Below the pieces are notes generated by a model that was not told the DNA's origin, searched no databases, and was given only the letters and a program-made list of their open reading frames with translations. The position numbers and the translations under genes were made by a program. 64,000 bases of DNA from Candidatus Obscuribacteraceae bacterium (GTDB lineage Bacteria; Cyanobacteriota; Vampirovibrionia; Obscuribacterales; Obscuribacteraceae): the NCBI GenBank assembly GCA_044229845.1, contig JBGASG010000002.1:576001-640000 (forward strand), given 5' to 3'. Positions 6,672-20,911 of the stretch are shown piece by piece (the stretch's first letter is position 1; every line of letters begins with the position of its first letter).

Positions 6672-8168
6672 ATGCCGTCGCATGCTTCAAACGCAGAATT
6701 TTGGATGGAGTCGGAACAGGCTCTTGCCTCGATTCACCCGTCCGGCGATTTATTTGACCGTCTCAGCACGGCGCGTGCCCCTGGGGTGGTGCCGACAGCT
6801 CCCCTAGATACTCTCTGCAGCTATCCTGGTTACGCCGGCTTTTCCTTGAGTTCTGCCGAAACTGAATGCGTGCAGTCTGCGTATTTTCGAGATCTGAGCA
6901 AAGTGAATTTTGTCTTCGCCGGATCAAAGGATCCGCAGATGTCGTCGGCGAATTTAATTCTCGATGAGCAAGGGCGTTTGGTAGTGAATGAGGACAACCC
7001 TCCAGTAGATGGTCAGCCAATCGTAGTTGGAATTGAAACCCAAGAGAATGAGTCACAGGCTCGCGAACAATACGCAAACCAACTGCAGAAGCAAACTGTG
7101 CAAGAGCTAGTACAACTGTGGCTCAAGAGCCACCCAGACAAATCAATGGCCGACATACCGGAAAGTTGGAAGAGCGTACTTGACTCTCATCCAGACGAAA
7201 CAGGAGCGAGTGTGTCGCCTGTCCCTCACGGAGGCAGCACTGGCGGTGGTGGCAGTAGCCACGGCGGTGGTGGCAGTAGCCACGGCGGTGGTGGCAGTAG
7301 CCGCGGCGGCGGTGGCAGTAGCCGCGGTGGCGGCGGTCACAGAGTTGATCACAGTGGTACCAGTGTAGACCGGCAATCCGGGCAAGGCGTCGAGTTTCAG
7401 CCCCACGTTCCCAACACTCCGGAGGCAAATCAGTTTTTGGACAAAGTCCAGACAGCAGTCAGCGAGAACCAGCGCGGACAGCCGGCCGACCGCGAGACTA
7501 TTAAAACCGGGATCGAGTCAGGCATGGCAGCTGGCTTCAGAAGCGAGTTGGGACTGGCAGTTTGCGCCGACTTGGCTTGCGCGATTGGACCGGAAGCACT
7601 CAAACAGGCGCTCAATAACCTTGGGAGCCCCGATAGTGTCGAGAAAAACGAAACCGCAGCTCTAAACAATTTAGCCTCCCAAGTTCAGCTTCAACTGCCC
7701 AATGCATCTGAACGCATTAGTGCGTTGAAGTCGAACTTCAGTCATGAGACAAATGTCGATTTCGGTATTCCAGCCGGCGTAGAAGAGTTTTTGCAAGTCG
7801 CGCTTGCTCAGCAGGGCGACCCATATGTGCCGAATGCTCAAGGACCAAACCAGTTCGACTGTTCCGGTCTGGTGTACTACGCGTTGCACGAGTGTGGCGT
7901 GGAAGGAAGTCGGACATCGGCACGTGGATATCAGGCTCGCTATGCCGACAGCGCCGTCAGCGAAGACCAGCTCCAGCCAGGAGACCTTGTTTTTTACTGG
8001 TACAAAAATGATAGAGGCATCCCAGAGGGCAAAGCTTCGCACATCGAAATCTATCTTGGCGATGGAAAAACAATGGGCACAGACAGTCCTAAAGAGGGTG
8101 CCCGGGTGGAACCGCTGGACAGACAACACTTTATAGGTGCCGCTCGCGTCGAAGCGCTGCAAGCTTGA
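6672..8168 (+). CDS. NlpC/P60 (C40) peptidase-domain protein with unknown N-terminal region
   Basis: QQGDPY...FDCSGLVYY, LQPGDLVFY and SHIEIYLGDG at the C-terminus. Confidence 0.85.
   Translation: MPSHASNAEFWMESEQALASIHPSGDLFDRLSTARAPGVVPTAPLDTLCSYPGYAGFSLSSAETECVQSAYFRDLSKVNFVFAGSKDPQMSSANLILDEQGRLVVNEDNPPVDGQPIVVGIETQENESQAREQYANQLQKQTVQELVQLWLKSHPDKSMADIPESWKSVLDSHPDETGASVSPVPHGGSTGGGGSSHGGGGSSHGGGGSSRGGGGSSRGGGGHRVDHSGTSVDRQSGQGVEFQPHVPNTPEANQFLDKVQTAVSENQRGQPADRETIKTGIESGMAAGFRSELGLAVCADLACAIGPEALKQALNNLGSPDSVEKNETAALNNLASQVQLQLPNASERISALKSNFSHETNVDFGIPAGVEEFLQVALAQQGDPYVPNAQGPNQFDCSGLVYYALHECGVEGSRTSARGYQARYADSAVSEDQLQPGDLVFYWYKNDRGIPEGKASHIEIYLGDGKTMGTDSPKEGARVEPLDRQHFIGAARVEALQA
7242..7325 (+). 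repeat. 21-bp tandem repeat x4 encoding a GGGGSS(H/R) linker
   Basis: ggcggtggtggcagtagccac unit repeated with minor variation. Confidence 0.9.
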
Positions 8169-8313: not shown

Positions 8314-8685
8314 ATGAATAGCAAGAACCTGATTGCGACTGTCGCGTTGGCTTCATTGACCATGCTGCCGGCATTGCCGGTCGAGGCGCAAGGATTTTTC
8401 GATATGCACCAGACCAGCAACATGGGCAACATCAATCGTAAGCAAAGCGAAGTGCGAGCTCGCATCGAGTTCGCTCGCAGCCGTGGTCAGCTAACCGCGT
8501 TCGAATACAATCGCTTGATGCGAGAGTTCAATCAAATAGCACGCATTGAGGACCGATCCAGAACGAACGGACTCAACTGGTATGAACGATCTCAGCTGTT
8601 GAGTCGCCTGGACAATCTCAACCAGCAAGTGACGCGCCAGATGCATGATCGCCAGACGGCAGGTCGCCCGCGTATCTTCTGGTAA
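8314..8685 (+). CDS. secreted hypothetical protein
   Basis: GGAGG RBS, signal peptide ending VEA, Arg-rich helical body. Confidence 0.75.
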   Translation: MNSKNLIATVALASLTMLPALPVEAQGFFDMHQTSNMGNINRKQSEVRARIEFARSRGQLTAFEYNRLMREFNQIARIEDRSRTNGLNWYERSQLLSRLDNLNQQVTRQMHDRQTAGRPRIFW

Positions 8686-8876: not shown

Positions 8877-9293
8877 ATGAAAACTACCCTCGCACTGCTT
8901 ATGGCAGCCGCAATTACTATCGGCGGGTTCCAGGCTGCAAATGCACAGAACGCCCCCCTGAACGGCTACGCCAGCAATGGATCTTTTTTCGGCAACCTTC
9001 TGAATGGTGCCGGGTTTAACAATGGCTACAACAACGGCTACAACCCTTATCTGAATGCCGGCTACGGCAACGGATACAACGGTGCGTACGCCGGCAACGG
9101 CAATGGCTATGGATACGGCAACGGTGGCGCCTGCCAGCAGAGACGACATCACAAGAAGAATGCAATCCGCAAAATGCAACGCCGCATGCAAAGACAAGCT
9201 ATGCAAAACCAATATGGTGGCGGATACGGCGGATACGGGAATGGCTGGAACAACGGCTATCAGAATGCAGGCAATGGTCGCTGGGGATTCTAA
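8877..9293 (+). CDS. secreted Gly/Asn/Tyr-rich low-complexity protein
   Basis: GAGGAG RBS, signal peptide ending ANA, repeated NGY/GYG. Confidence 0.75.
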   Translation: MKTTLALLMAAAITIGGFQAANAQNAPLNGYASNGSFFGNLLNGAGFNNGYNNGYNPYLNAGYGNGYNGAYAGNGNGYGYGNGGACQQRRHHKKNAIRKMQRRMQRQAMQNQYGGGYGGYGNGWNNGYQNAGNGRWGF

Positions 9294-9494: not shown

Positions 9495-10442
9495 ATGACA
9501 ACGGCACAGACACAACTGCAGCAGGCATCCCCGGTTATCAGCCGGAACAATGTGCTGGCACGTCTGTGGCAGTACCAGCGCGAGCGGTTTCCCGTCTTTG
9601 CTCACGGGTTGTTAGTTGCCGCTTTCAGCTTTTCAGGTGTATGTCTCTCGGCGATCCTGCGTGGCAGCGAGCAGTTGCCTAGCGCTGCCACGCTCTTTGT
9701 CGCCTTTGCTTGCGCTCTCAGTTTCTTCTTCCAATTGAGAGTTGCTGATGAGTTCAAAGACGCGGAAGAGGACGCACAGCACAGACCTTATCGGCCAGTC
9801 CCCCGTGGGCTGGTCAGCCTGGGCGAACTGCGCGCGGTCGCCATTTTGACCGCAATCGGACAGGTTGTCCTCTGTCTGCTTGTTAAACCGGATTTGATAC
9901 CACTTCTGGTCGGAACGTGGGCTTACCTTGGACTGATGACCAAAGAATTCTTCGCGGCAGAATGGTTGCGCAAACACCCGGTCGTCTACATGTGCAGCCA
10001 CATGCTGATCTTGCCGATCATCGATTACTTCATCACCGCCTGCGACTGGCTGCCGGGCAATGCCCCGCATGGGCTGGTCTGGTTTCTCGCAGTCAGTTTC
10101 TTCAATGGTCTGGTCATCGAAATCGGACGCAAGTTGCGCAGTCCGCAAGAAGAGGAAGCCAACGTCGAAACCTACAGCGCCCTCTGGGGACTTAAATCAG
10201 CCAGCTCGATTTGGGTAACGATGATGTTTGTCACTGCAGTGTGCGCCACCATCACTGCCATGAGCTACGGTATGGCACCGATGACCGGCGGCATTCTGGC
10301 GGCGTTGCTGTTGATAATCGCGGTGATGGCACCGAAAACCGCTTCGCGATTCGAGGCGTTGTCGGCCGTCTGGACCTTAGTCCTCTACCTGAGCGTTGGC
10401 ACGGTTCCGATGCTCTGGATCAGATTCCTCTCCGCAAACTAG
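9495..10442 (+). CDS. UbiA prenyltransferase family membrane protein
   Basis: RVADEFKDAEEDAQHRPYRPVPRG Asp-rich motif; many TM helices. Confidence 0.85.
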   Translation: MTTAQTQLQQASPVISRNNVLARLWQYQRERFPVFAHGLLVAAFSFSGVCLSAILRGSEQLPSAATLFVAFACALSFFFQLRVADEFKDAEEDAQHRPYRPVPRGLVSLGELRAVAILTAIGQVVLCLLVKPDLIPLLVGTWAYLGLMTKEFFAAEWLRKHPVVYMCSHMLILPIIDYFITACDWLPGNAPHGLVWFLAVSFFNGLVIEIGRKLRSPQEEEANVETYSALWGLKSASSIWVTMMFVTAVCATITAMSYGMAPMTGGILAALLLIIAVMAPKTASRFEALSAVWTLVLYLSVGTVPMLWIRFLSAN

Positions 10443-10457
10443 CAAACGAGTGCCATC

Positions 10458-13049
10458 ATGCAATTTGTCATCACCATCGACAACGCGATCACCAACGAAA
10501 ACATGCAACGCCTGGGCGGCAAAGGCAAGGCACTGGCATCGCTTATCAAGGCTGGCTTCTCGGTGCCGGCGTGCATCGCGGTGGTGCCCGAAGCATTCGA
10601 TGGCAATACAGTGAACGGTGAAGCCGCCAAACAAATTGCCGCCTCCGTCGCATCGTTGCGCAGCGGTTTCTTCGCTATTCGCTCCTCTGCTGCAGATGAA
10701 GACGGAACCGCACATTCATTCGCAGGGCAGCTCGAAAGTTTCCTCTGCGTGAAACCGGAGGATGTTCTCCAGAGAGTCATTGACGTCTTCAATTCGGCAT
10801 TTGCAGAACGAGTCATCGCATACAGACAAGAGCATTGCCTGTCGGGCGAGTCCCCGATCCCGACTGTGTTGATTCAGGAAATGGTGCATGCCGATTCGTC
10901 CGGTGTCGCCTTCAGCGCCGACCCAACCGCAAATACCGACCGTTCGGTAATCGGGGCAGTGTACGGGTTGGGAGAGGGACTGGTGTCGGGACAGCTCGAT
11001 GCCGACACATATTTTGTTTCCGGCGAACTCATCGAACGCGACATCGCTAGGAAAACAACCGCCTATCATCTGGCTACCACCGAAAGCGGTGGCATCGAGT
11101 TGCGGGCAGTCGATGAGCTGAGCGCCAGAAAGAGCGCGTTGACCGACGAGCAAATCAAGGCGGTCAGCCAATTGGCAATCGCCTGCGAAGCCCATTTCAA
11201 GACGCCGCAAGATATCGAGTGGGCTTATGCCGAACGTCAACTTTACCTTCTGCAATCGCGCCCGATCACTACGGCGATCTCGCGACCCGCTGCGAAGGAA
11301 GAGTTACGCATATTCGACAACAGCAATATCGGCGAAAGCTATAACGGCGTCACCACTCCGCTCACGTTCAGTTTCGCACGCAGAGCATACGAAAACGTAT
11401 ATCTGCAATTCTGCCGCATCCTGCAAGTCAATGAGAGAACCCTGCAACGAGAAAAGCAGGTCTTCGCCAATATGATCGGCTTGATTCGCGGTCGCATCTA
11501 CTACAACTTGATCAGCTGGTATCGTGTGCTGGCGCTGTTACCCGGTTATGCGTTCAATGCTCCCTTCATGGAGCAAATGATGGGCGTCAAGGAACCGCTT
11601 CCTCAAGAAGTCAAACTCGCGCAGAAGAAGCCGCGACGCCTGGAACGCTGGCTCGATTGCATCGCGCTCGCCTGGTCGCTGCTTGGTCTGATTGCTTCAT
11701 TCGTCACATTGAAATCGCGCATTGCCAAATTCTATGTCCGATTGAATGACGCGTTGAAACCGGTCGAATTGAAAAATATGTCAATCGACCAACTGCTCGG
11801 CTATTACCACTTGCTGGAAGCGAAGCTGCTTTTGCAATGGGACGCGCCTCTGGTCAATGACTTCTTCGCCATGATCTTCTACGGCGTCCTCAAGTCTCTG
11901 ACTCAACTGGTTCTGTGGGATGCGCAATCCAATCTGCATAACGATCTACTTGCCCAGACAGGCGACATTATCAGCGCAGAGCCGGCGGCACGAATCGCAA
12001 AAATGGCTAGGGTGGCGTCAGCGGATCCTTCGCTGGTCGATGTGCTCTGCAACAAGTCGCTGTCAGTGATCGAAAGACGCCTGAAGCAAGAGCCCGAGTT
12101 CAAGACAATGATTGATGCATATCTAGAGAAATTCGGCGACCGTTGCATCGGCGAACTCAAACTTGAAAGTCCGACGCTCCTCGATGACCCGCTGCCCCTT
12201 TTGCGGTCGGTCGGTCAGATGGCATCTCGCATCGCCAGCGGCACCCGCGCGAACCGCCGGCAAGGTCGATTGATCAGACGGCGTGCCGAGCAACGAGTTT
12301 TTGGCGGCGGACGCATGACTCCATGGGAGAAGGCAGGCTACGCCTGGGTGCTGCACAATGCGCGAGAAACAGTGCGCAATCGCGAGAACTTGAGATTCGA
12401 ACGCACCCGAGTCTTCGGACGTGTGCGGCAGATATTTGTGGAGGTCGGCAAACGACTGCAGCAACAGAATTTGATCGACGACTACCGTGATATCTTCTAT
12501 CTCGAGCTGTCCGAGATCATCGGGTTCGTCAATGGCACCGCCACCACCTTGTCACTGCGGTCACTGGTGGCAGTGCGCAAATCCGAATTCGATCAATATC
12601 GCGCCGAGGACGAACCGCCTACCCGCATCGAAATACGCGGCGCCGCAGGTATCCCCGCCGCGACGGCCACTAGATTGGGCAACGAAAGCAAGAGCACGTC
12701 AGCAGAATTGCGCGGCATCGCCTGCTGCCCCGGCGTGGTGCGCGGACCGGTGCGCGTCGTGCATGACCCTAAAGACGCCGTGATTCTGTCCGGCGAAATA
12801 CTTGTCGCCAAGCGCACCGATCCAGGTTGGATAACTTTGTTTCCCGCTGCTTCAGGCTTGCTGGTCGAGCACGGCAGCCTGCTTTCCCACTCGGCGATTG
12901 TGTCGCGCGAACTGGGACTGCCGTCGATAGTGTCGGTTTCGGGCATCTGCGACGAGCTCTCCACCGGCGACATCGTCGAGTTCGACGGCAGCTCCGGCAA
13001 CATTCGCGTAATCGCCAGACACGACGCCGGCACCGCAAGCGTGGGTTAG
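10458..13049 (+). CDS. PEP-synthase/PPDK superfamily enzyme with rifampin-phosphotransferase-like architecture (ATP-grasp, central domain, C-terminal phospho-His swivel)
   Basis: GGKG, RSSAADED..SFAGQ, GLGEGLVSG, DIEW, LQSRPIT; C-terminal TDPGW and LSHSAIVSRELGLP. Confidence 0.9.
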   Translation: MQFVITIDNAITNENMQRLGGKGKALASLIKAGFSVPACIAVVPEAFDGNTVNGEAAKQIAASVASLRSGFFAIRSSAADEDGTAHSFAGQLESFLCVKPEDVLQRVIDVFNSAFAERVIAYRQEHCLSGESPIPTVLIQEMVHADSSGVAFSADPTANTDRSVIGAVYGLGEGLVSGQLDADTYFVSGELIERDIARKTTAYHLATTESGGIELRAVDELSARKSALTDEQIKAVSQLAIACEAHFKTPQDIEWAYAERQLYLLQSRPITTAISRPAAKEELRIFDNSNIGESYNGVTTPLTFSFARRAYENVYLQFCRILQVNERTLQREKQVFANMIGLIRGRIYYNLISWYRVLALLPGYAFNAPFMEQMMGVKEPLPQEVKLAQKKPRRLERWLDCIALAWSLLGLIASFVTLKSRIAKFYVRLNDALKPVELKNMSIDQLLGYYHLLEAKLLLQWDAPLVNDFFAMIFYGVLKSLTQLVLWDAQSNLHNDLLAQTGDIISAEPAARIAKMARVASADPSLVDVLCNKSLSVIERRLKQEPEFKTMIDAYLEKFGDRCIGELKLESPTLLDDPLPLLRSVGQMASRIASGTRANRRQGRLIRRRAEQRVFGGGRMTPWEKAGYAWVLHNARETVRNRENLRFERTRVFGRVRQIFVEVGKRLQQQNLIDDYRDIFYLELSEIIGFVNGTATTLSLRSLVAVRKSEFDQYRAEDEPPTRIEIRGAAGIPAATATRLGNESKSTSAELRGIACCPGVVRGPVRVVHDPKDAVILSGEILVAKRTDPGWITLFPAASGLLVEHGSLLSHSAIVSRELGLPSIVSVSGICDELSTGDIVEFDGSSGNIRVIARHDAGTASVG

Positions 13050-13058
13050 GAGAGCATC

Positions 13059-14186
13059 ATGTCCGTTTCTCAAACAGTCTTCCGCCCCGAATCAGCAGCC
13101 GCCATCTACCCGCGTATCCGCTATGCGCAATGCTGGGAAGACGCCGACATCCTGCTCGAAGCCCTTGCCGTTCAACCGGGTGACGTTTGCCTGTCAATCG
13201 CGTCAGGAGGCGAAAACTCGCTCTCGCTGTTAAGCCAGTCGCCAGCCAAGGTGATTGCAGTCGACTGCAATCCCTCGCAGCTAGCCATCTTGGAACTGAA
13301 AGCCGCCGCGTTCCGCAACCTCAGTCATGCCGAACTGCTGCGCTTCCTCGGCTCGCATCCGGCAACCCCGTCCGAGCGCCGCGAATTCTACACCTACTGC
13401 GCCCCCGACCTGGCGCCCGCAACAGCCCGCTACTTCCGAGAAAACGTTCACCTCATTGAGGCGGGTATCAACCACGCCGGCAAGTTCGAGGACTATTTCA
13501 GGCTGTTTCGCCAGACGCTGCTGCCCCTGATCCACGACCGGAGGACAGTTGAACAACTGTGTGCCCCGCGGTCTCTGGAGGCTCGCCGTGCGTTTTACTT
13601 AGAGGTATGGAATACCTGGCGCTGGAGAGCGCTGTTCTCAATGTTTTTCTCAAGGAAGGTTATGGGCAACGCCGGACGCGATCCAGCATTATTCAAATAT
13701 GTCGAAGGAGATTGCTCTTCGCGTATTTTGGGTCGCGTCCGGCACGGGCTCACGGAAGTGGCACCGGAATCAAACCCATATCTTCAGTGGATTCTTTTTG
13801 GCGAACATCGCAAAGGCGTGTTGCCCCATGCACTGCGTGAAGAAAACTTCCAGGCTATCCGCGACAACCTCAGCAAACTGGAATGGCATTGCCAGACGAT
13901 CGAAGAGTATTTGGAAGCCAATCCGACAACCCGAGTCGACTGCTTCAACCTGAGTGACATCTTCGAATACATGAGCGAAGCTGAATATTCCGAGATGCTG
14001 GATACACTGATCGGTGCCTCCGCTGACGGTGCCCGATTGGCTTACTGGAACATGCTGGTAGACCGCCAGGCGCCAGCAGCCTACGCTGATCAAATCACCA
14101 CCCACGAACAGAAGTCGCAAGAGCTACTGGCAGCTGACAAGGCATTTTTCTACAGTGCCTTCAGACTGGAAACGGTACACAGATGA
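13059..14186 (+). CDS. DUF3419/BtaA family SAM-dependent (3-amino-3-carboxypropyl) transferase
   Basis: YAQCWEDA, SIASGGEN, AVDCNPSQL..LELK, LSDIFEYM. Confidence 0.85.
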   Translation: MSVSQTVFRPESAAAIYPRIRYAQCWEDADILLEALAVQPGDVCLSIASGGENSLSLLSQSPAKVIAVDCNPSQLAILELKAAAFRNLSHAELLRFLGSHPATPSERREFYTYCAPDLAPATARYFRENVHLIEAGINHAGKFEDYFRLFRQTLLPLIHDRRTVEQLCAPRSLEARRAFYLEVWNTWRWRALFSMFFSRKVMGNAGRDPALFKYVEGDCSSRILGRVRHGLTEVAPESNPYLQWILFGEHRKGVLPHALREENFQAIRDNLSKLEWHCQTIEEYLEANPTTRVDCFNLSDIFEYMSEAEYSEMLDTLIGASADGARLAYWNMLVDRQAPAAYADQITTHEQKSQELLAADKAFFYSAFRLETVHR

Positions 14187-15508
14187 ACGCCTGGATCGCG
14201 ATAGTTTCTGTCCTCGCCGTTCTGCTCGCGTCGATCTCACTTTTGCGCTGGTATCAGATATCACAAAAACCGCACCCGGAAATTGTGCGCAAGCTTTTGC
14301 ACGTGATTATGGGTTCGGTCACCATCACGTTTCCGTGGGTGTTTCACGAAACCTCGCCGGTCTGGCTGTTAGCCCTTGTCTCCGCGTGCACGCTCGGCGC
14401 CATCAAATACCAACCTCGCCTGAAGGAATCAGTCGGCAGCGTCGTTTGCGCAGTCGAGCGCAGAACGTACGGAGAGATCTGCTTCCCACTGGCTGTTGCG
14501 ATTCTCTTCAGCGTCGCACACACGCAGCCGCTTCTCTATTGCGTACCGATGGCAATTCTCTCAATTGCCGATGCTTCATCGGCGCTCGTCGGCATGTTTT
14601 ACGGCAAGCACAAATATTCAACCAGTGAAGGCAACAAAACCGCAGAGGGCTCGTTGACGTTCTTCGCCATCGCCAGCCTGGCTACTCTGGTTCCGCTTCT
14701 GGCTATGGGAGTCGGTATCGAGCGCGCAGCGCTCATCTCGCTGCTGCTCGGCTGTCTGGTCACCCTATTTGAAGCGATCGCGTGGCAAGGTCTGGACAAC
14801 CTCTTCATTCCGCTGAGCGCATACGCGATGCTGCTCACTGGTCTCACCACTTCAATCGGAATGCTTGCCGAGCAACTTGGTGTCGCCTGTCTGCTGCTTC
14901 TGGTCGCGATACTTCTGCGCGGCCGCACCAAGCTCAACGACAGCGCCGCACTCGGTGCCGCGCTTTTCTGCTACCTGAGTTGGGCAATTGGCGGCTGGAT
15001 GTGGAGCATTGCACCATTGACGGTGCTGGCGGCGCATCGCCTGATCTTGCCGGCAAAGTATCGCAGACAAGACGCCCGACCGCACACGATTCACGAAGTA
15101 ATCTGGGTGGCTTCAGCAGGCTTCTTCTGGCTGTGGCTGAGCAAGACAACCGCGCAGTCATTCCTTCTCCCGTACACTCTCACCTATGCCGCACAGCTGG
15201 CCTTGATTGGCTGCGCACACGCCACCATGCCACAAGCCCAGTCTTTGAAAACCAACGCTGCAGTGCAATCATGTTTTGTGGCGTGGAGCGCGTTGTTTCT
15301 CCCGTTCGCGCTGACTACCGGTTTCTCGCCGGAGGCAGTCGCGTTTTCATTCTGCTCCCTGCTCGCCATGCTGATTTGCGCCGCCGCCTTCCTGGCGCTG
15401 CACCGCGGCGAGGCAAATCAATTTCACAGCGTCACGCGCTGGGCTCAGCAAACAGGCGTGGTGGCAGCCTGCTCGGCCGCGGTCTTTGTAATTCTCCAGT
15501 TGACGTAA
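14183..15508 (+). CDS. CTP-dependent polyprenol/phytol/dolichol kinase-like membrane protein with additional C-terminal TM region
   Basis: RKLLH, IADASSALVG..YGKH, KTAEGS, GLDNLFIP; ATGA overlap with upstream gene. Confidence 0.8.
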   Translation: MNAWIAIVSVLAVLLASISLLRWYQISQKPHPEIVRKLLHVIMGSVTITFPWVFHETSPVWLLALVSACTLGAIKYQPRLKESVGSVVCAVERRTYGEICFPLAVAILFSVAHTQPLLYCVPMAILSIADASSALVGMFYGKHKYSTSEGNKTAEGSLTFFAIASLATLVPLLAMGVGIERAALISLLLGCLVTLFEAIAWQGLDNLFIPLSAYAMLLTGLTTSIGMLAEQLGVACLLLLVAILLRGRTKLNDSAALGAALFCYLSWAIGGWMWSIAPLTVLAAHRLILPAKYRRQDARPHTIHEVIWVASAGFFWLWLSKTTAQSFLLPYTLTYAAQLALIGCAHATMPQAQSLKTNAAVQSCFVAWSALFLPFALTTGFSPEAVAFSFCSLLAMLICAAAFLALHRGEANQFHSVTRWAQQTGVVAACSAAVFVILQLT

Positions 15509-15521
15509 GGAACTCACCATC

Positions 15522-16415
15522 ATGCCTGTACAAACTCAGATCACCAGAAGCGAACCAGACAAGGTCATCAGTCTGCCTGGTGCCGGTTGCTCGCTTTGGT
15601 GGCGCCACACTCCCGGACTCGATGGAGCAAAGCTCGGCTTCATCGGCCGGTTTGCCGCCGACAGCGCAACAGCATCGACACATATCCTCGATTACGCCTG
15701 CGACCTATTAAAAGAGAATGGCGTCAATCTAGCAGTCGGTCCAGTTGACGGCAACACCTGGAACAGCTATCGCTATACCACCTGGTCATCCGGCCAAGCA
15801 CCATTCTGTCTGGAGCCGCAACATCCCGCGCAGTATCCTCGGTATTTCCAGCACGCCGGGTTCTCGCCGCTGGCGACCTACTACTCGTCAATCACCCATG
15901 ACTTGCACAGCGACAGAAAAGTGGTGGCAAAGCTAGAGGAGAAACTGGCGCGAGCCGGCGTCACCATCAGACAGATCGATGCCGCCAATTTTGACGGCGA
16001 ACTGCTCAAAGTTTTCCAACTGTGCGAGCAAAGCTTCAAAGACAATTTTCTATATTCGCCAATCACGCAAGCTGAGTTTCTTCAGCAGTACGCCGCCGTC
16101 AAGCCGCTGATTCAGCCGCCTCTGGTGCTGCTGGCGGAGGTCGACAGCGAGCTGGTCGGCTTTGTCTTCGCGCTGCCCAATATCAACGATGCTGAACGCC
16201 GGACGATCATAGTAAAGACTCTGGCTCGCTTGCCGCAACGCGAGCTTGCCGGTCTCGGGCACTTGCTTTTGGCACAAGTCCACGAAGCAGCGCAGCAGAT
16301 GGGTTTCAAGCAAGCCATTCATGCCCTCATGCATGAGTCGAACAACTCGCTGGCGCTGAGCAATCGCTATGCCGCCAAGTTTCGTGAGTATGCGCTGTTT
16401 GCGAGGAGCCTCTAA
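15522..16415 (+). CDS. GNAT-family acyltransferase-like protein
   Basis: GPVDGNTW..YR, VGFVFALP, VKTLAR...AGLG acyl-CoA-binding-like motif, HALM. Confidence 0.75.
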   Translation: MPVQTQITRSEPDKVISLPGAGCSLWWRHTPGLDGAKLGFIGRFAADSATASTHILDYACDLLKENGVNLAVGPVDGNTWNSYRYTTWSSGQAPFCLEPQHPAQYPRYFQHAGFSPLATYYSSITHDLHSDRKVVAKLEEKLARAGVTIRQIDAANFDGELLKVFQLCEQSFKDNFLYSPITQAEFLQQYAAVKPLIQPPLVLLAEVDSELVGFVFALPNINDAERRTIIVKTLARLPQRELAGLGHLLLAQVHEAAQQMGFKQAIHALMHESNNSLALSNRYAAKFREYALFARSL

Positions 16416-16417
16416 TC

Positions 16418-17965
16418 ATGAATGTCTACAAGAAACTGCTAGAGCAACTGGCGATGCGCCCCGATGCCACCGCAATCATCGATACGAAGGGTGACAGCGT
16501 CAGGCACACCTCCTATGCACAATTGGTTCATCAAATTGAACAGGCGGCGTCCAACCTCGAACGCAAGGGCGTATACAACGGCGACACAGTTCTGCTGTTG
16601 CACGGACTGAGCCTGGAACTGTACGTGGCACTGCTGGCGCTTCTCAAAATCGGTGCCACGGCCATGGTCATCGACCCTTCGATGCCAGCCGAAGCTCTCA
16701 AGCGTTGCTGCCAGATCGCGCAACCAAAAGCAATTATCGGCGGTGCCAAAGGTTTGGTGTTCGCGTTGTTCAATCAGGACCTGCGATCGATACCGCGTCG
16801 CATTGGATTGAGCCGCATTTTGCGCAGCGCTCAAGGCGACCTCAGCGAAACCTTCATCGCCTGGCCCGAGACACCTGCGTTGATCACGTTCACCAGTGGC
16901 AGCACCGGCATACCCAAAGCGATCTGCCGCAGTCATCAGTTTCTTCTCGACCAGCACGAAGCATTGCACAACGCCCTCAACTTGCAATCAGGTGCAGTAC
17001 AACTGGTGACGCTGCCTGTCTTCGTGCTCGCCAATCTGGCATCAGGCGTGACCAGTGTTCTGCCCAACACGGATATCAGCTTGCCTGGTCAGGTCAATGC
17101 GCGCGCCATCATCAACTACATACAGACAACCGGTGTCACCGAGATTCTCGCATCGCCTGCCTTTGTCGAACGACTCTGCGATCATGCGCTGGCTCATCGT
17201 CGCGCACTCCCAACTATCGAGCGCATCTTCACCGGTGGCGCACCGGTCCTGCCTCGCAGCTACCGCAACATGCAGGAGGTCTTCCCACGTGCCACCATTT
17301 ACGGTGTCTATGGTTCAACAGAAGCAGAGCCGATAGCAAAGATAAATCTCGACGAGATTAGCGCCGAAGATATGGAGGCAATGTCGAACGGCGCGGGATT
17401 GCTGGCGGGGTACTGTGATGGTTCCGTCCAGCTAGCCATCATCGATAGCAACTGGCAGCCGACACCTGAGCAACAGTGCGACTTGAAAGCACATGCTTTA
17501 GGTGTGCGACAAGTGGGCGAAATAATTGTCGCCGGCAGACATGTGGTCAAGTCGTATTTAAACACCGAGCAAAACGCCGAAAGTAAAATCCACCTGAATG
17601 GCGAGACGCTCAGCCCCACGGTGTGGCATCGCACCGGCGACGCCGGTTATCTGGACGAACAGGGACGCCTCTGGTTGCTGGGACGGGTCTCCACGCGTAT
17701 CGATGACGAATTCGGTGTGCTCTACCCGCTGGCATGCGAAGCGCAAGTGATCGAACAGACTGCAGTGAAACGCGCAGCCATCCTCAATCGCGGCTCCATG
17801 CGGACGATGGTCATCGAAAGCCGCGACAGAGCTGCGGCTCCGGCGCTCAAGCGCATCGCCAGCCGCGCGCATATCCAACGCATAGTTTTCGTGGACAGGT
17901 TGCCAGTCGACAAGCGGCACAACTCGAAAATCGACTATCGCGCCTTGCATAAAGTCCTATCTTGA
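16418..17965 (+). CDS. ANL-superfamily AMP-forming ligase, OleC-like
   Basis: FTSGSTGIPK, YGSTEAEP, WHRTGDAG, LPVDKRHNSKID. Confidence 0.88.
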   Translation: MNVYKKLLEQLAMRPDATAIIDTKGDSVRHTSYAQLVHQIEQAASNLERKGVYNGDTVLLLHGLSLELYVALLALLKIGATAMVIDPSMPAEALKRCCQIAQPKAIIGGAKGLVFALFNQDLRSIPRRIGLSRILRSAQGDLSETFIAWPETPALITFTSGSTGIPKAICRSHQFLLDQHEALHNALNLQSGAVQLVTLPVFVLANLASGVTSVLPNTDISLPGQVNARAIINYIQTTGVTEILASPAFVERLCDHALAHRRALPTIERIFTGGAPVLPRSYRNMQEVFPRATIYGVYGSTEAEPIAKINLDEISAEDMEAMSNGAGLLAGYCDGSVQLAIIDSNWQPTPEQQCDLKAHALGVRQVGEIIVAGRHVVKSYLNTEQNAESKIHLNGETLSPTVWHRTGDAGYLDEQGRLWLLGRVSTRIDDEFGVLYPLACEAQVIEQTAVKRAAILNRGSMRTMVIESRDRAAAPALKRIASRAHIQRIVFVDRLPVDKRHNSKIDYRALHKVLS

Positions 17966-18021
17966 GCACTGTCGGGTAAGATAGATCTGGAAACACCCTC
18001 TCCGACTCACGGCCATTGCAC

Positions 18022-18738
18022 ATGGCTCACCAACAGATCGACAAGACCGACGAGTCTTCGCAGCGCGTTGCGGATCTGATCGCCGCATGCGCACACGATT
18101 TGCGTGCGCCGCTTTCCGGGAATGCATCGCTTCTGGAATTGATGCTCGCCGAAGAGTTCGGATCGTTGCCCGACCAGGCGAGGGATGCATTGCAAGTGAT
18201 GTTGTGCGGCAATCGCAGCATGCACCACACTCTGCAGCTTCTGGTCGATGTATTCCAGCTTGAAGCAAACCAGGGCGAGCTGCTGCACATCGAGAATCAA
18301 ACTGTGTCCGGCGCTGTTCAAAGCGCCGCAGAATCTATGGATAGTGAATCGCAGGCACGAGTCAATTTAGATGTCGCACCGCACATAAGCGTGCGAGCGG
18401 ATCGAGAGGCACTGCAAAAGGTTTTTTCGTTGTTGTTTGCCAGTTGCCTGCGCAAGAACGCACCGGAACAATGCCTGCATGTCACAGCCGCTTCCACGGG
18501 TATCCAGACACGCATCGATATTGCCGGCGCGGCAGTGCCACTGCAAAACCTCCCTGATTGCGAGGCGTTCAAAAGCTTGTGCGGCAGTGCGCCGCGAAAA
18601 AAGCTACCGGCCGGGTCCGTGCTTTCGTTCTATCTCTCTGCGCTCATGGTGCAGCTGCAGCGCGGACAAATGGTGGCAGAACGACACGCCGATGACACCA
18701 CTACCGTTAGTATTACTTTGCCGGCGGGTGCACCATGA
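18022..18738 (+). CDS. sensor-less HisKA protein with degenerate ATPase domain
   Basis: H-box AHDLRAPL intact; N, G1 and G2 boxes not recognisable. Confidence 0.7.
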   Translation: MAHQQIDKTDESSQRVADLIAACAHDLRAPLSGNASLLELMLAEEFGSLPDQARDALQVMLCGNRSMHHTLQLLVDVFQLEANQGELLHIENQTVSGAVQSAAESMDSESQARVNLDVAPHISVRADREALQKVFSLLFASCLRKNAPEQCLHVTAASTGIQTRIDIAGAAVPLQNLPDCEAFKSLCGSAPRKKLPAGSVLSFYLSALMVQLQRGQMVAERHADDTTTVSITLPAGAP

Positions 18739-19388
18739 AAACCGCCACTGTGTTTGTCATCGAAGACGACGAGCTGATGCTGGCTGGACTGCGGGCCTCG
18801 CTCGGACGACTCCATCATCTGGAAGTCTTAGGCAGCGCCATGGACGGTCGGCAGGGTCTGGACAACGTCCTCAGGATGCGGCCAGACATTGCCATCGTAG
18901 ACATTGGTCTACCTTTCATGGACGGCATCGAAGTCACCGAACGCATCAAGCATCAACTCGATCACTGCAAAGTGCTGATGCTCACATCACACGATGACGA
19001 CAACAACTTGTTTTCTGCCTTCGCCGCCGGCGCCGATGGATATGTATTGAAAGACTCCGGCATCCAGACCCTGGATCTGGCAATTAACACGGTGCTGGGC
19101 GGCGCCGTTTGGTTGGACTCACGCATTGCCAAACGTGTGTTGCAATACGCGATTGTATCCGCCGCACTGTCACCACCGGCTGCCGTCGAACCGATCATCA
19201 AACTGACTGAGCGAGAAACGGAAGTTCTACGCTTCATGTGCGACGGCATGACTAACGCGGAGATCGCCGAGAGGTTGAATCTGACCACCGAAACCGTCAA
19301 AACTCACGTCAGCAAAATCATGCACAAGCTGGCAGTCAACGATCGCACGCAAGCCGCTGTTAAAGCCGTGCGCTCACACCTGATCTAG
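18735..19388 (+). CDS. NarL/LuxR family response regulator
   Basis: IEDD, VDIGLP.MDG, MLTS, YVLK; LTERETEVL...TVKTHVSKIMHKL HTH. Confidence 0.93.
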   Translation: MKTATVFVIEDDELMLAGLRASLGRLHHLEVLGSAMDGRQGLDNVLRMRPDIAIVDIGLPFMDGIEVTERIKHQLDHCKVLMLTSHDDDNNLFSAFAAGADGYVLKDSGIQTLDLAINTVLGGAVWLDSRIAKRVLQYAIVSAALSPPAAVEPIIKLTERETEVLRFMCDGMTNAEIAERLNLTTETVKTHVSKIMHKLAVNDRTQAAVKAVRSHLI

Positions 19389-19603: not shown

Positions 19604-20911
19604 TTACTGTTTCTTGAAGTGAATCAGTTTGTTCTCGGAATCGATGGAATAAGTATACTCCCCAAAAAACTGCTGTCCGAGCAAGGGGCGATCCATATGG
19701 GTGTCTTCGATGGCGGAGACCCAGGGCGAGTACTGAGTAATCGGACCCATTTTGATGCTGTCGACCTGAAAACCGTAACCCATGGTATCCCCGCCGACGC
19801 CACTGTGACGTTCTTTCCGGTAATCGGAAGGAATATCGATATTGAGTTTCTTCAAATGCGACATGGCGAAGGCGCAAACGCCACCAGCCCCGGTATCAAA
19901 GATCATTTCACAGGGCTTGTTGTTGACGAATGCATTGACGATCATGTGCCCGCCGCTCCAGCGAAACGGCACGGCATAAGGATCGCGCGATGCCGACGCA
20001 GAACTGGTTGCTCCGCCGGCGCCTTTCTTTTTCAAAACCAACTGCGAGTTTTGCGTATCGACCGTCACCGAGTAGGGCGCGAAAAACGTCTGTCCAAGCA
20101 AGCCTTCACAGGGCAAGTTGTCTTGAATGACGACCGGAAAATTTTTCCTGTACAAGCCGCCCACTTTCAGGTCGCAGGCTTGCGACCAGGTATTGCTGAC
20201 GCGGCTGCCCACACCGGCTGATTTCCCTTCGATGCCTTTGGCGGCTGGGCGTGAGATACCCAGTTGGGCCATGTGATTTTCGCCGACCACCGTCATTGGT
20301 GCACCGGTGTCCACGATCATTTCCAGCACCTGGTTGTTGATCAGCACATTGACTTTGATACCGTCGCGATCTTTGACAAAGGGAATTCTGACGTCGGTGG
20401 GTAATGAAGCCACTTCGGCCGCCGAAGTCGTATTCTTCAGCCAGCGCTCGGTATTGAAGCCGCGACTGCGACCGTCATCGCCTGCGTCATTGTCATTGTC
20501 ATCACCACCACCCGCTTGTTGCTGTCCCGTCGGCGCCACATAAGTACCGGCAGGATACTGACCGCCGGTGCCGGCCGCGCCGGGAGTGCGCGCCAGTACA
20601 GATCGCGCCAGTTGTCCTTGCTGAGTCGAACCAAAGTTGTCGCTCAGATATTGGAAGAGCTGCCGCGCGCGAGCACCGTTATTGCTCATGTAGTGGGAAA
20701 GTGCGCAGTAGTAAAGAACATTCGGATTGCTCGGTTGTGTCTGTAGAGCTTTCTCGAATTGCTGAGCCGCGCCGCGGTAATTTTTAGCCGAATACAGCTT
20801 GACGCCGGCATCGAAGACCGGATCGGCAAAAGACGGCGAGCCGCCCAACCAGATTGCCAGTGCCAACCCCAAAGCAGTCACCCAGCTTGTGTTTCGCGAA
20901 ACGGAACGCAT
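19604..20911 (-). CDS. secreted TPR protein with two retropepsin-like aspartyl protease domains
   Basis: Signal peptide; TPR; IVDTGA...LLGQTF and IFDTGA...LLGQQF. Confidence 0.85.
   Translation of the reverse strand: MRSVSRNTSWVTALGLALAIWLGGSPSFADPVFDAGVKLYSAKNYRGAAQQFEKALQTQPSNPNVLYYCALSHYMSNNGARARQLFQYLSDNFGSTQQGQLARSVLARTPGAAGTGGQYPAGTYVAPTGQQQAGGGDDNDNDAGDDGRSRGFNTERWLKNTTSAAEVASLPTDVRIPFVKDRDGIKVNVLINNQVLEMIVDTGAPMTVVGENHMAQLGISRPAAKGIEGKSAGVGSRVSNTWSQACDLKVGGLYRKNFPVVIQDNLPCEGLLGQTFFAPYSVTVDTQNSQLVLKKKGAGGATSSASASRDPYAVPFRWSGGHMIVNAFVNNKPCEMIFDTGAGGVCAFAMSHLKKLNIDIPSDYRKERHSGVGGDTMGYGFQVDSIKMGPITQYSPWVSAIEDTHMDRPLLGQQFFGEYTYSIDSENKLIHFKKQ

Follow-up and report, generated by a model that had tools for sequence, protein, structure and literature searches.

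We analyzed a 64,000-nucleotide stretch of contig JBGASG010000002.1 from a Candidatus Obscuribacteraceae bacterium, hereafter the window, in which six genes follow one another on the + strand at positions 9495–17965. By the coordinates of their open reading frames (ORFs), the gaps between them are 15, 9, −4, 13, and 2 bp, exactly as in a sequence-only reading that preceded this work, which had proposed that the six co-oriented genes build a membrane-anchored compound through phosphorylation, prenylation, aminocarboxypropylation, and acylation. The first gene (9495..10442, +; 315 aa) encodes a UbiA-fold membrane enzyme of an Spt7-type subfamily, predicted to form a phosphoester bond or to transfer an alkyl group. 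It is followed by an ATP-dependent dikinase of the Spt1 clade with the domain order of RPH and PigC and with His811 in a conserved phospho-histidine motif (10458..13049, +; 863 aa), and by a DUF3419/BtaA-like transferase dependent on S-adenosylmethionine (SAM) that lacks a BtaB partner and is predicted to attach a 3-amino-3-carboxypropyl group (13059..14186, +; 375 aa). The fourth product (14183..15508, +; 441 aa) is a membrane protein with an N-terminal domain of the phytol/dolichol-kinase type (approximately residues 1–220) and a degenerate, dispensable DUF92-like C-terminal half. The fifth (15522..16415, +; 297 aa) is a tandem GNAT of the YghO/bacterial ceramide N-acyltransferase family, a predicted N-acyltransferase, and the last (16418..17965, +; 515 aa) is an ANL-type adenylating enzyme that lies closest to the OleC group and is predicted to activate a fatty (3-hydroxy) acid.

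The family labels of the sequence-only reading stand, by Pfam for the UbiA, dikinase, DUF3419, and AMP-binding proteins, by profile, fold, and Atlas evidence for the kinase, and by a tandem-GNAT fold for the acyltransferase. All six proteins score below the NCBIfam cut-offs; the families that come closest are PRK13592 for the UbiA-fold protein and PRK06241.2-2 for the dikinase, both uncharacterised, and the OleC group for the ligase. The GC content of the six genes resembles that of the remaining window, and a promoter and terminator scan of the block returned no excess over shuffled sequences (4 vs 5.1 and 10 vs 10.6, respectively). RNA contigs from all four sludge or biofilm metatranscriptomes (4/4) overlap portions of the block at a depth of about 2–11; these contigs are strandless, do not resolve a single transcript, and may include DNA carry-over. 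One spans the GNAT–ligase junction. We rate this coverage as weak evidence and do not take it as proof of an operon transcript.

Using an alignment of 42 DUF3419 relatives, we fetched loci from species genomes and kept the best 80 of the 589 confirmed, hence a sample biased toward close relatives. The record titles of these 80 loci cover at least 13 phylum-level groups. The kinase was found in 72 of them, the dikinase in 72, the UbiA-fold gene in 65, the GNAT in 60, and the ligase in 58; all six genes stand together in 49 (40 of the 50 loci with full long flanks), and each of the 422 gene matches is co-stranded (422/422). These counts bear out the co-conservation across phyla put forward in the sequence-only reading. 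Cultured carriers include Brevibacillus laterosporus, Roseinatronobacter sp. S2, and several cyanobacteria. Among 41 related genomes the operon UbiA occurs in 13, at chromosomal sites that differ between relatives. When the window was compared with the same-genus genome G001, synonymous and non-synonymous codon changes stood at 39:11 in the GNAT gene and 132:35 in the ligase gene, ratios that favour purifying selection; the other four genes are near-identical between the two and uninformative on selection. At the same-genus locus L116 the first four genes are almost identical to those of the window, and GNAT and ligase (window 15522–17965) are sharply divergent, with 171 synonymous codon changes, which suggests recombination at the 3′ end. 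The operon is real and widespread, and it is undescribed in the literature that we searched, which took in few subscription journals; nor did that search return a characterised pathway combining the six genes, in agreement with the sequence-only reading.

Two features had escaped that reading, the kinship of the GNAT to YghO and ceramide synthase, taken up below, and a usual seventh gene resembling class I 3-hydroxy-3-methylglutaryl-coenzyme A (HMG-CoA) reductase. The latter is present in 52 of the 80 loci and lies immediately 5′ of the UbiA gene in 50 of those 52; the commonest orders are reductase-UbiA-dikinase-DUF3419-kinase-GNAT-ligase (27 loci) and a permutation starting with GNAT-ligase (13 loci). 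No reductase match was found in the genome of the window (88% complete) or in any of the 10 operon-bearing genomes of its family, counting the window genome and nine relatives; two class-mates of the window genome carry the reductase beside UbiA. Since the six-gene block is intact without the reductase in six relatives (G001, G003, G006, G018, G020, and G031, the last 99% complete), we regard the six-gene form as a stable variant. The reductase of the seven-gene form retains its catalytic and NADPH motifs. At positions for which we assume the substrate-binding roles of the human enzyme, the residues for the HMG carboxylate are altered (Glu for Ser in 50/50, a non-polar residue or Thr for Lys in 48/50) and differ from those of a mevalonate-operon reductase; HMG-CoA synthase is not among the recurrent neighbours of the 80 loci.

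Related reductase genes were also seen elsewhere. A solitary HMG-CoA-reductase gene occurs in Vibrio and Photobacterium (L103:13983-15245); it is about 60% identical to the operon clade, shares its altered substrate positions, and has no mevalonate genes close by. The genome of locus L088 contains a different HMG-CoA-reductase-like gene adjoining an ABC1 kinase and a wax-ester synthase (L190:6171-10700). Should the reading favoured below hold, many of the 'HMG-CoA reductases' that bacteria encode away from mevalonate operons, the lone Vibrio gene included, may use another substrate.

The dikinase shares with RPH and the prodigiosin ligases PigC and RedH the order of an ATP-grasp domain, a central domain, and a C-terminal phospho-histidine domain, and a Pfam scan recovered PPDK_N and the C-terminal PEP-utilizer of the RPH architecture. 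It differs from them in the central domain, which scores 39 bits on the PigC model, 71 on RedH, and 45 on RPH, vs 359 on the uncharacterised PRK06241.2-2 family; the whole protein reaches 303–335 bits on RPH/PigC family models with cut-offs of 999–1350. On this evidence the enzyme is probably neither a resistance enzyme nor a pyrrole-condensing one. The dikinase is 32% identical over its full length (913 columns, E 2e-127) to the Spt1-position protein of an spt-like cluster (not the Salinispora Spt1 itself). With a profile of the central substrate domain, seven dikinases of the Spt1 or ICMT (methyltransferase) type scored 216–325 bits, and six other dikinases at most 28. A quick tree unites the window-type and Spt1-type dikinases with an SH-aLRT value of 97; this tree carries long-branch warnings.

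The UbiA-fold protein led to the same clusters. It matches PF01040 (E 5e-13; 49.3 bits vs a cut-off of 34.2), and its profile aligns with an actinomycete Spt7-type family at 98.9% (E 2.5e-17, 276 columns), with identities of about 21–25% to the Spt7-position proteins of spt-like clusters; the Salinispora Spt7 was not the comparator. Canonical UbiA prenyltransferases are marked by NDxxD and a second Asp-rich motif, both also visible in aligned solved structures. The canonical NDxxD is absent from all 50 operon UbiA rows (0/50) and from the Spt7-type rows, the first Asp-rich region being retained in altered form, and the second motif is replaced by ExxRK. The sequence RxxDExKD is found in 50/50 operon rows and 24/25 Spt7-type rows, and ExxRK in 48/50 and 25/25, respectively. 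Within the genome of the window, the operon UbiA is the sole match to the Spt7-type profile (59 bits; next 14).

The two proteins also travel together. No locus among the 65 with UbiA lacks the dikinase (0/65). Of 13 loci retrieved by the Spt7-type profile, comprising 7 of 8 genome hits plus the 6 longest out of 24 metagenome loci, 12 carry a dikinase. Among the plasmids of the collection, both proteins were matched outside the operon solely on the Streptomyces clavuligerus megaplasmid; there they lie side by side, bordered by genes for AfsA, a membrane-bound methyltransferase, an oxidoreductase, and a NUDIX hydrolase. Relatives of this UbiA occur in Streptomyces, Nocardia, Tsukamurella, and kin. 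Locus L173 contains a dikinase, an AMP-ligase fusion, an acyl carrier protein (ACP), a PF07993 reductase, a nucleoside diphosphate (NDP) kinase, AfsA, a nitroreductase, and a UbiA-like gene, the product of which, at the Spt7 position, has no Pfam match at E 0.001. Its Pfam set and order are those given for spt-like clusters in PMC8209734, namely Spt1 with PF00391 and PF01326, Spt2 with PF00501, Spt5 with PF07993, Spt6 with PF00334, Spt7 with PF01040, and Spt9 with PF03756. A smaller cluster type (AfsA, methyltransferase, dikinase, UbiA; L139 and L161) has no NDP kinase in view, so that the pair and a monophosphate source would make up the entire phosphate machinery there. Judged by profiles and motifs, the dikinase groups with Spt1 and the UbiA-fold protein with Spt7 of the salinipostin-type phosphotriester clusters, and gene context ties the pair to phosphoester chemistry.

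The S. clavuligerus megaplasmid cluster was seen at L139:13066-20433 (also L156, L160, and L161), with AfsA, an isoprenylcysteine-methyltransferase-like gene, a Spt1-type dikinase, a Spt7-type UbiA, an oxidoreductase, and a NUDIX protein. We propose it, as a candidate only, for a methyl phosphotriester such as cyclophostin, the genes of which are called unidentified in the 2020 salinipostin preprint.

The DUF3419 protein (PF11899, E 2e-69) shares 27–28% identity with a rhizobial BtaA next to which a methyltransferase is encoded. It is the component shared with the BtaA/BtaB pathway of the betaine lipid diacylglyceryl trimethylhomoserine, from which the operon differs in lacking BtaB, for which one rhizobial BtaB-position protein as query gave no match in the genome of the window or in the 80 loci, and in having a distinct DUF3419 subfamily that is linked with five or six further enzymes; the DUF3419-derived amine is probably acylated rather than methylated. 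Other DUF3419 genes were seen in different company. A second one in the genome G000 (C21:7021-7932, L133; 26% identity) lies in a DUF2071/methyltransferase/DoxX-like cluster also seen in G022, another adjoins genes for KAS III, a reductase, an MBL hydrolase, and an F390-synthetase-like protein (L137:4829-11167), and a third an iron-redox enzyme and a SAM decarboxylase (L138:7261-9490).

The 441-aa kinase has no Pfam match, and its profile no sequence match in the PDB. Its predicted fold is confident (pLDDT, the predicted local distance difference test, 93), the best fold matches still being CdsA (Foldseek E 0.13, prob 0.92) and CarS (Z 6.4), both weak. The family profile recovered a short kinase-like gene in five of five cyanobacterial genomes at 86–122 bits, vs 1.8 bits for CdsA, a score on which we reject a CdsA-type cytidylyltransferase. 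These short homologues, putative phytol kinases, bear that name in the Atlas (score 0.85), and the protein is thus a phytol-kinase-type lipid kinase by profile, fold, and Atlas evidence. Phytol salvage couples the phytol kinase VTE5 to the phytyl-phosphate kinase VTE6, a DUF92 protein. The N-terminal domain aligns with the short cyanobacterial kinases and contains every invariant column (all before residue 218, in the first 217 positions), and the C-terminal half carries a weak DUF92 signal in 11 of 48 rows (best E 0.002). The kinase differs from that system in that the DUF92 motif is found in 0 of 48 C-terminal halves, and in that this half is missing at several loci, where forms of 223–289 aa occur. 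We reject a VTE5–VTE6 fusion producing the diphosphate alone on the grounds of this degeneracy and dispensability, which also make a monophosphate the likelier product; a second phosphorylation would fall to the dikinase.

The GNAT protein has a weak Pfam match (E 6e-4) and folds as a tandem GNAT (Z 19.8, rmsd 3.5, 257 aligned). Its profile matches YghO of Escherichia coli BL21 as a full-length homologue (98.6%, E 5.7e-16, 257 columns), at 22–25% identity to the YghO family. Its plasmid matches carry the name yghO and adjoin sphingolipid genes, and the BL21 yghO adjoins genes for serine palmitoyltransferase, an ACP, a ligase, and a reductase. PMC9386255 lists yghO as the acyl-CoA N-acyltransferase homologue for dihydroceramide synthesis, and PMC11087976 (see also PMC10191378) describes bCerS as the acyltransferase. 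The operon shares with bacterial ceramide synthesis this protein and an adjoining acid-activating ligase, and differs in lacking serine palmitoyltransferase, ACP, and CerR; neither serine palmitoyltransferase nor CerR was found in the block or among recurrent neighbours, two distant matches to the AOS family (30–34%) lie on other contigs of the genome, and the amine would derive from SAM-derived homoserine. The ligase (PF00501 AMP-binding, E 1e-49) has adenylation motifs conserved across 55 rows. OleC, the olefin beta-lactone synthetase, is among its best-matching named ANL families, but the ligase falls far under the cut-offs (220–243 bits on OleC models with cut-offs of 850–900; 394 on PRK09274 with a cut-off of 478) and has no OleA, OleB, or OleD neighbours.

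Compared with spt clusters, the operon shares a Spt1-clade dikinase, an Spt7-like protein with the same altered motifs, an AMP ligase, and a kinase step, along with a thioester reductase in most cases. AfsA (Spt9, PF03756) is absent from the six genes, the scanned flanking genes, and the recurrent neighbours of the 80 loci, and neither the male-sterility reductase Spt5 (PF07993), the NDP kinase Spt6, nor the ACP Spt4 is found among the six genes or recurrent neighbours, the clustering of which left out ORFs shorter than 120 aa, such as ACP. The DUF3419 protein, the YghO-type GNAT, the cytidine triphosphate (CTP)-type membrane kinase, the HMG-CoA-reductase-like protein found elsewhere, and the spread over many phyla are particular to the operon. 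It lies outside the spt, BtaAB, ceramide, ole, and phytol-salvage systems, and probably works like an spt phosphoester module joined to lipid-family enzymes.

Variant loci, which come from draft genomes and in which gene absences are tentative, bear on the roles of the parts. At L059 the kinase is fused to UbiA and followed by the GNAT and a phosphatidylserine decarboxylase; at L179 the reductase carries a fused C-terminal domain resembling an EcKL kinase (weak, E 0.0014), and the membrane kinase was not matched in the genome; at L035 and L061 a second dikinase and a PigE-like aminotransferase occur where the membrane kinase was not found. These variants suggest a path from alcohol to monophosphate to a dikinase–UbiA step, in which reductase and kinase form a supply module that can be exchanged and the other five genes are the core. 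Neighbours of lipid type include phosphatidylserine decarboxylase (L059), PAP2 (L045, L088), MMPL (L022, L052, L059), and CdsA (L095). In the Verrucomicrobial variants (L035:933-15285, L061:1100-13717, and L100), possibly an amine-based version, the block also contains a fusion with a PigE-like aminotransferase, a SnoaL protein, and a second dikinase of unrelated type. Actinomycetota versions of the operon were seen at L179:4138-17087, with an embedded ABC exporter, and at L178.

Our preferred reading, to which we give about an even chance, is that the block builds a phosphate-linked, N-acylated amino-acid lipid (an N-acyl-homoserine lipid), not prenylated, by way of the salinipostin-type dikinase and UbiA-fold pair. 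The CTP-type membrane kinase would phosphorylate a lipid alcohol (step 1), and the dikinase, via His811 and ATP, would convert the lipid monophosphate to a pyrophosphate (step 2). A second hydroxyl would then attack the pyrophosphate on the UbiA-fold enzyme, giving a linear or cyclic phosphodiester with no cytidine diphosphate (CDP) intermediate (step 3). DUF3419 would transfer the aminocarboxypropyl group from SAM to a phosphate oxygen or a hydroxyl (step 4), and the ligase would activate a fatty acid with which the YghO-type GNAT would acylate the new amine (step 5). In most lineages the HMG-CoA-reductase-like enzyme may make the alcohol from a 3-hydroxyacyl thioester, and in the lineage of the window, which has no reductase, the alcohol would be drawn from the host pool. 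The gene set, its co-conservation, the family relationships, and the motif changes were computed here; the reactions, the order of steps 3–5, the substrates, and the product are what we infer. Of the lipid-like product in the sequence-only reading, phosphorylation, aminocarboxypropyl transfer, and acylation fit the evidence; prenylation does not survive as the best account, given the altered UbiA motifs, the constant Spt1-type dikinase, and a salinipostin-type product that has no prenyl group.

Several observations weigh against this pathway. The identities on which the pair is assigned are low (32% for the dikinase, about 21–25% for UbiA), and the closest solved UbiA structures are prenyltransferases (DGGGP synthase, E 2e-5; chlorophyll synthase, E 0.002). 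The accessible part of the salinipostin preprint reports no reaction for Spt1 or Spt7. It has the NDP kinase Spt6 make the butyrolactone pyrophosphate, and offers ring closure with phosphate loss and condensation with the fatty alcohol from Spt2/4/5 as a proposal only; since Spt6 rather than the dikinase makes that pyrophosphate, step 2 is our inference. According to PMC11877004, no phosphotriesters were detectable from seven strains that carry spt-like clusters. The block has no AfsA to point to an acceptor hydroxyl. The DUF3419 profile has no PDB sequence match, that is, no solved relative, and because of this and of its occurrence in other contexts the DUF3419 reaction is not fixed. The pairing is broken from the dikinase side, in that L052 (full flanks) lacks UbiA and L100 has DUF3419 and an unrelated dikinase with no UbiA; L065 lacks both kinase and reductase, and each lipid-type neighbour occurs in just 1–3 of the 80 loci.

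The main rival is ether or prenyl transfer, in which the kinase and dikinase would make an alkyl or prenyl diphosphate, UbiA would move the carbon chain to an O or C acceptor and release pyrophosphate, and the N-acyl homoserine head of a phosphate-free ether aminolipid would be added by DUF3419, ligase, and GNAT. It accommodates the PF01040 score above cut-off, the nearest structures, the altered but retained first Asp-rich region, and the phytol-kinase type of the kinase, and BtaA is established to form an ether bond to diacylglycerol. The loss of NDxxD and the ExxRK in place of the second motif speak against it, as does the position of the nearest UbiA relatives in clusters with an unprenylated phosphotriester as known product. 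No prenyl-diphosphate synthase is among the recurrent neighbours of the 80 loci, and saturated alkyl diphosphates are, by established chemistry, poor carbocation donors. We consider this route doubtful, at about one chance in four.

The same phosphoester chemistry might instead yield a low-abundance lipophilic phosphotriester, a signal or a serine-hydrolase inhibitor of the cyclipostin kind, and not a membrane lipid. The known products of Spt1/Spt7 clusters are such compounds, and the patchy spread over related genomes with varied chromosomal sites, the P450, MFS, or MMPL genes in certain variants, and the low RNA-contig depth would suit it. Yet two of the six enzymes are integral membrane proteins, the GNAT and kinase belong to families of membrane-lipid enzymes, no regulator or exporter is a conserved neighbour, and the pathway is retained in the 1.8 Mb genome of G031, so that we judge this outcome unlikely. 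Decay of the block in the lineage of the window after reductase loss is very improbable. The reductase was not found in the 88% complete genome, G018 has low-scoring versions of the GNAT and the kinase (66 and 194 bits), and the block is split or partial in some relatives, but it is intact without reductase in six relatives including G031, synonymous changes outnumber non-synonymous ones in GNAT and ligase, and the catalytic motifs are preserved. Least credible of all is a mevalonate-to-prenyl shunt (reductase to mevalonate, decarboxylation via a beta-lactone by the OleC-like enzyme, and two kinases to isopentenyl diphosphate for UbiA), which draws on the reductase in 52/80 loci and on the use of beta-hydroxy acids by OleC, but meets no recurrent HMG-CoA synthase, altered HMG-carboxylate positions, no reductase in 10/10 operon-bearing family genomes, and a DUF3419 protein and GNAT that it leaves unaccounted for.

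Around the block, a short histidine-kinase-like protein (HisKA, no sensor) and a NarL-type regulator are encoded on the same strand at 18016-19388, 50 bp past the ligase; among the relatives examined, this pair lies 3′ of the ligase only in the same-genus genome, and we left it out of the system. Just upstream are two small ORFs with signal-peptide-like starts (8314-8685 and 8877-9293), the second of which is Gly/Asn/Tyr-rich, has no Pfam match, and shows the deepest RNA contigs of the region (depth 34–61). Farther out lie an NlpC/P60 peptidoglycan hydrolase with a Gly-rich repeat linker (6672-8168) and, on the − strand, a TPR protein carrying two retropepsin-like aspartyl protease domains (19604-20911).

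In a bolder form of the phosphate-linked reading, which we hold only tentatively and think somewhat improbable, the operon would represent a widespread route, independent of CDP, to a new bacterial phospholipid class, possibly a neutral phosphotriester, with PEP-synthase-like pyrophosphate activation, joining by a UbiA-fold phosphotransferase, and an N-acyl homoserine cap, and the same pair would supply the missing ring-closing step of salinipostin and cyclophostin. The analysis offers an assayable role for three orphan families, the PRK06241-type dikinase, the PRK13592-type UbiA, and the BtaB-less DUF3419, and links them to phosphotriester closure, a question left by the salinipostin paper. 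If the phosphate-linked reading is true, UbiA-fold proteins would include phosphoester-forming enzymes, and bacteria of more than 12 phyla would produce a phosphate-linked aminolipid that has gone unrecognised, with activation through pyrophosphate instead of CDP, a phospholipid-like assembly differing from the textbook route.

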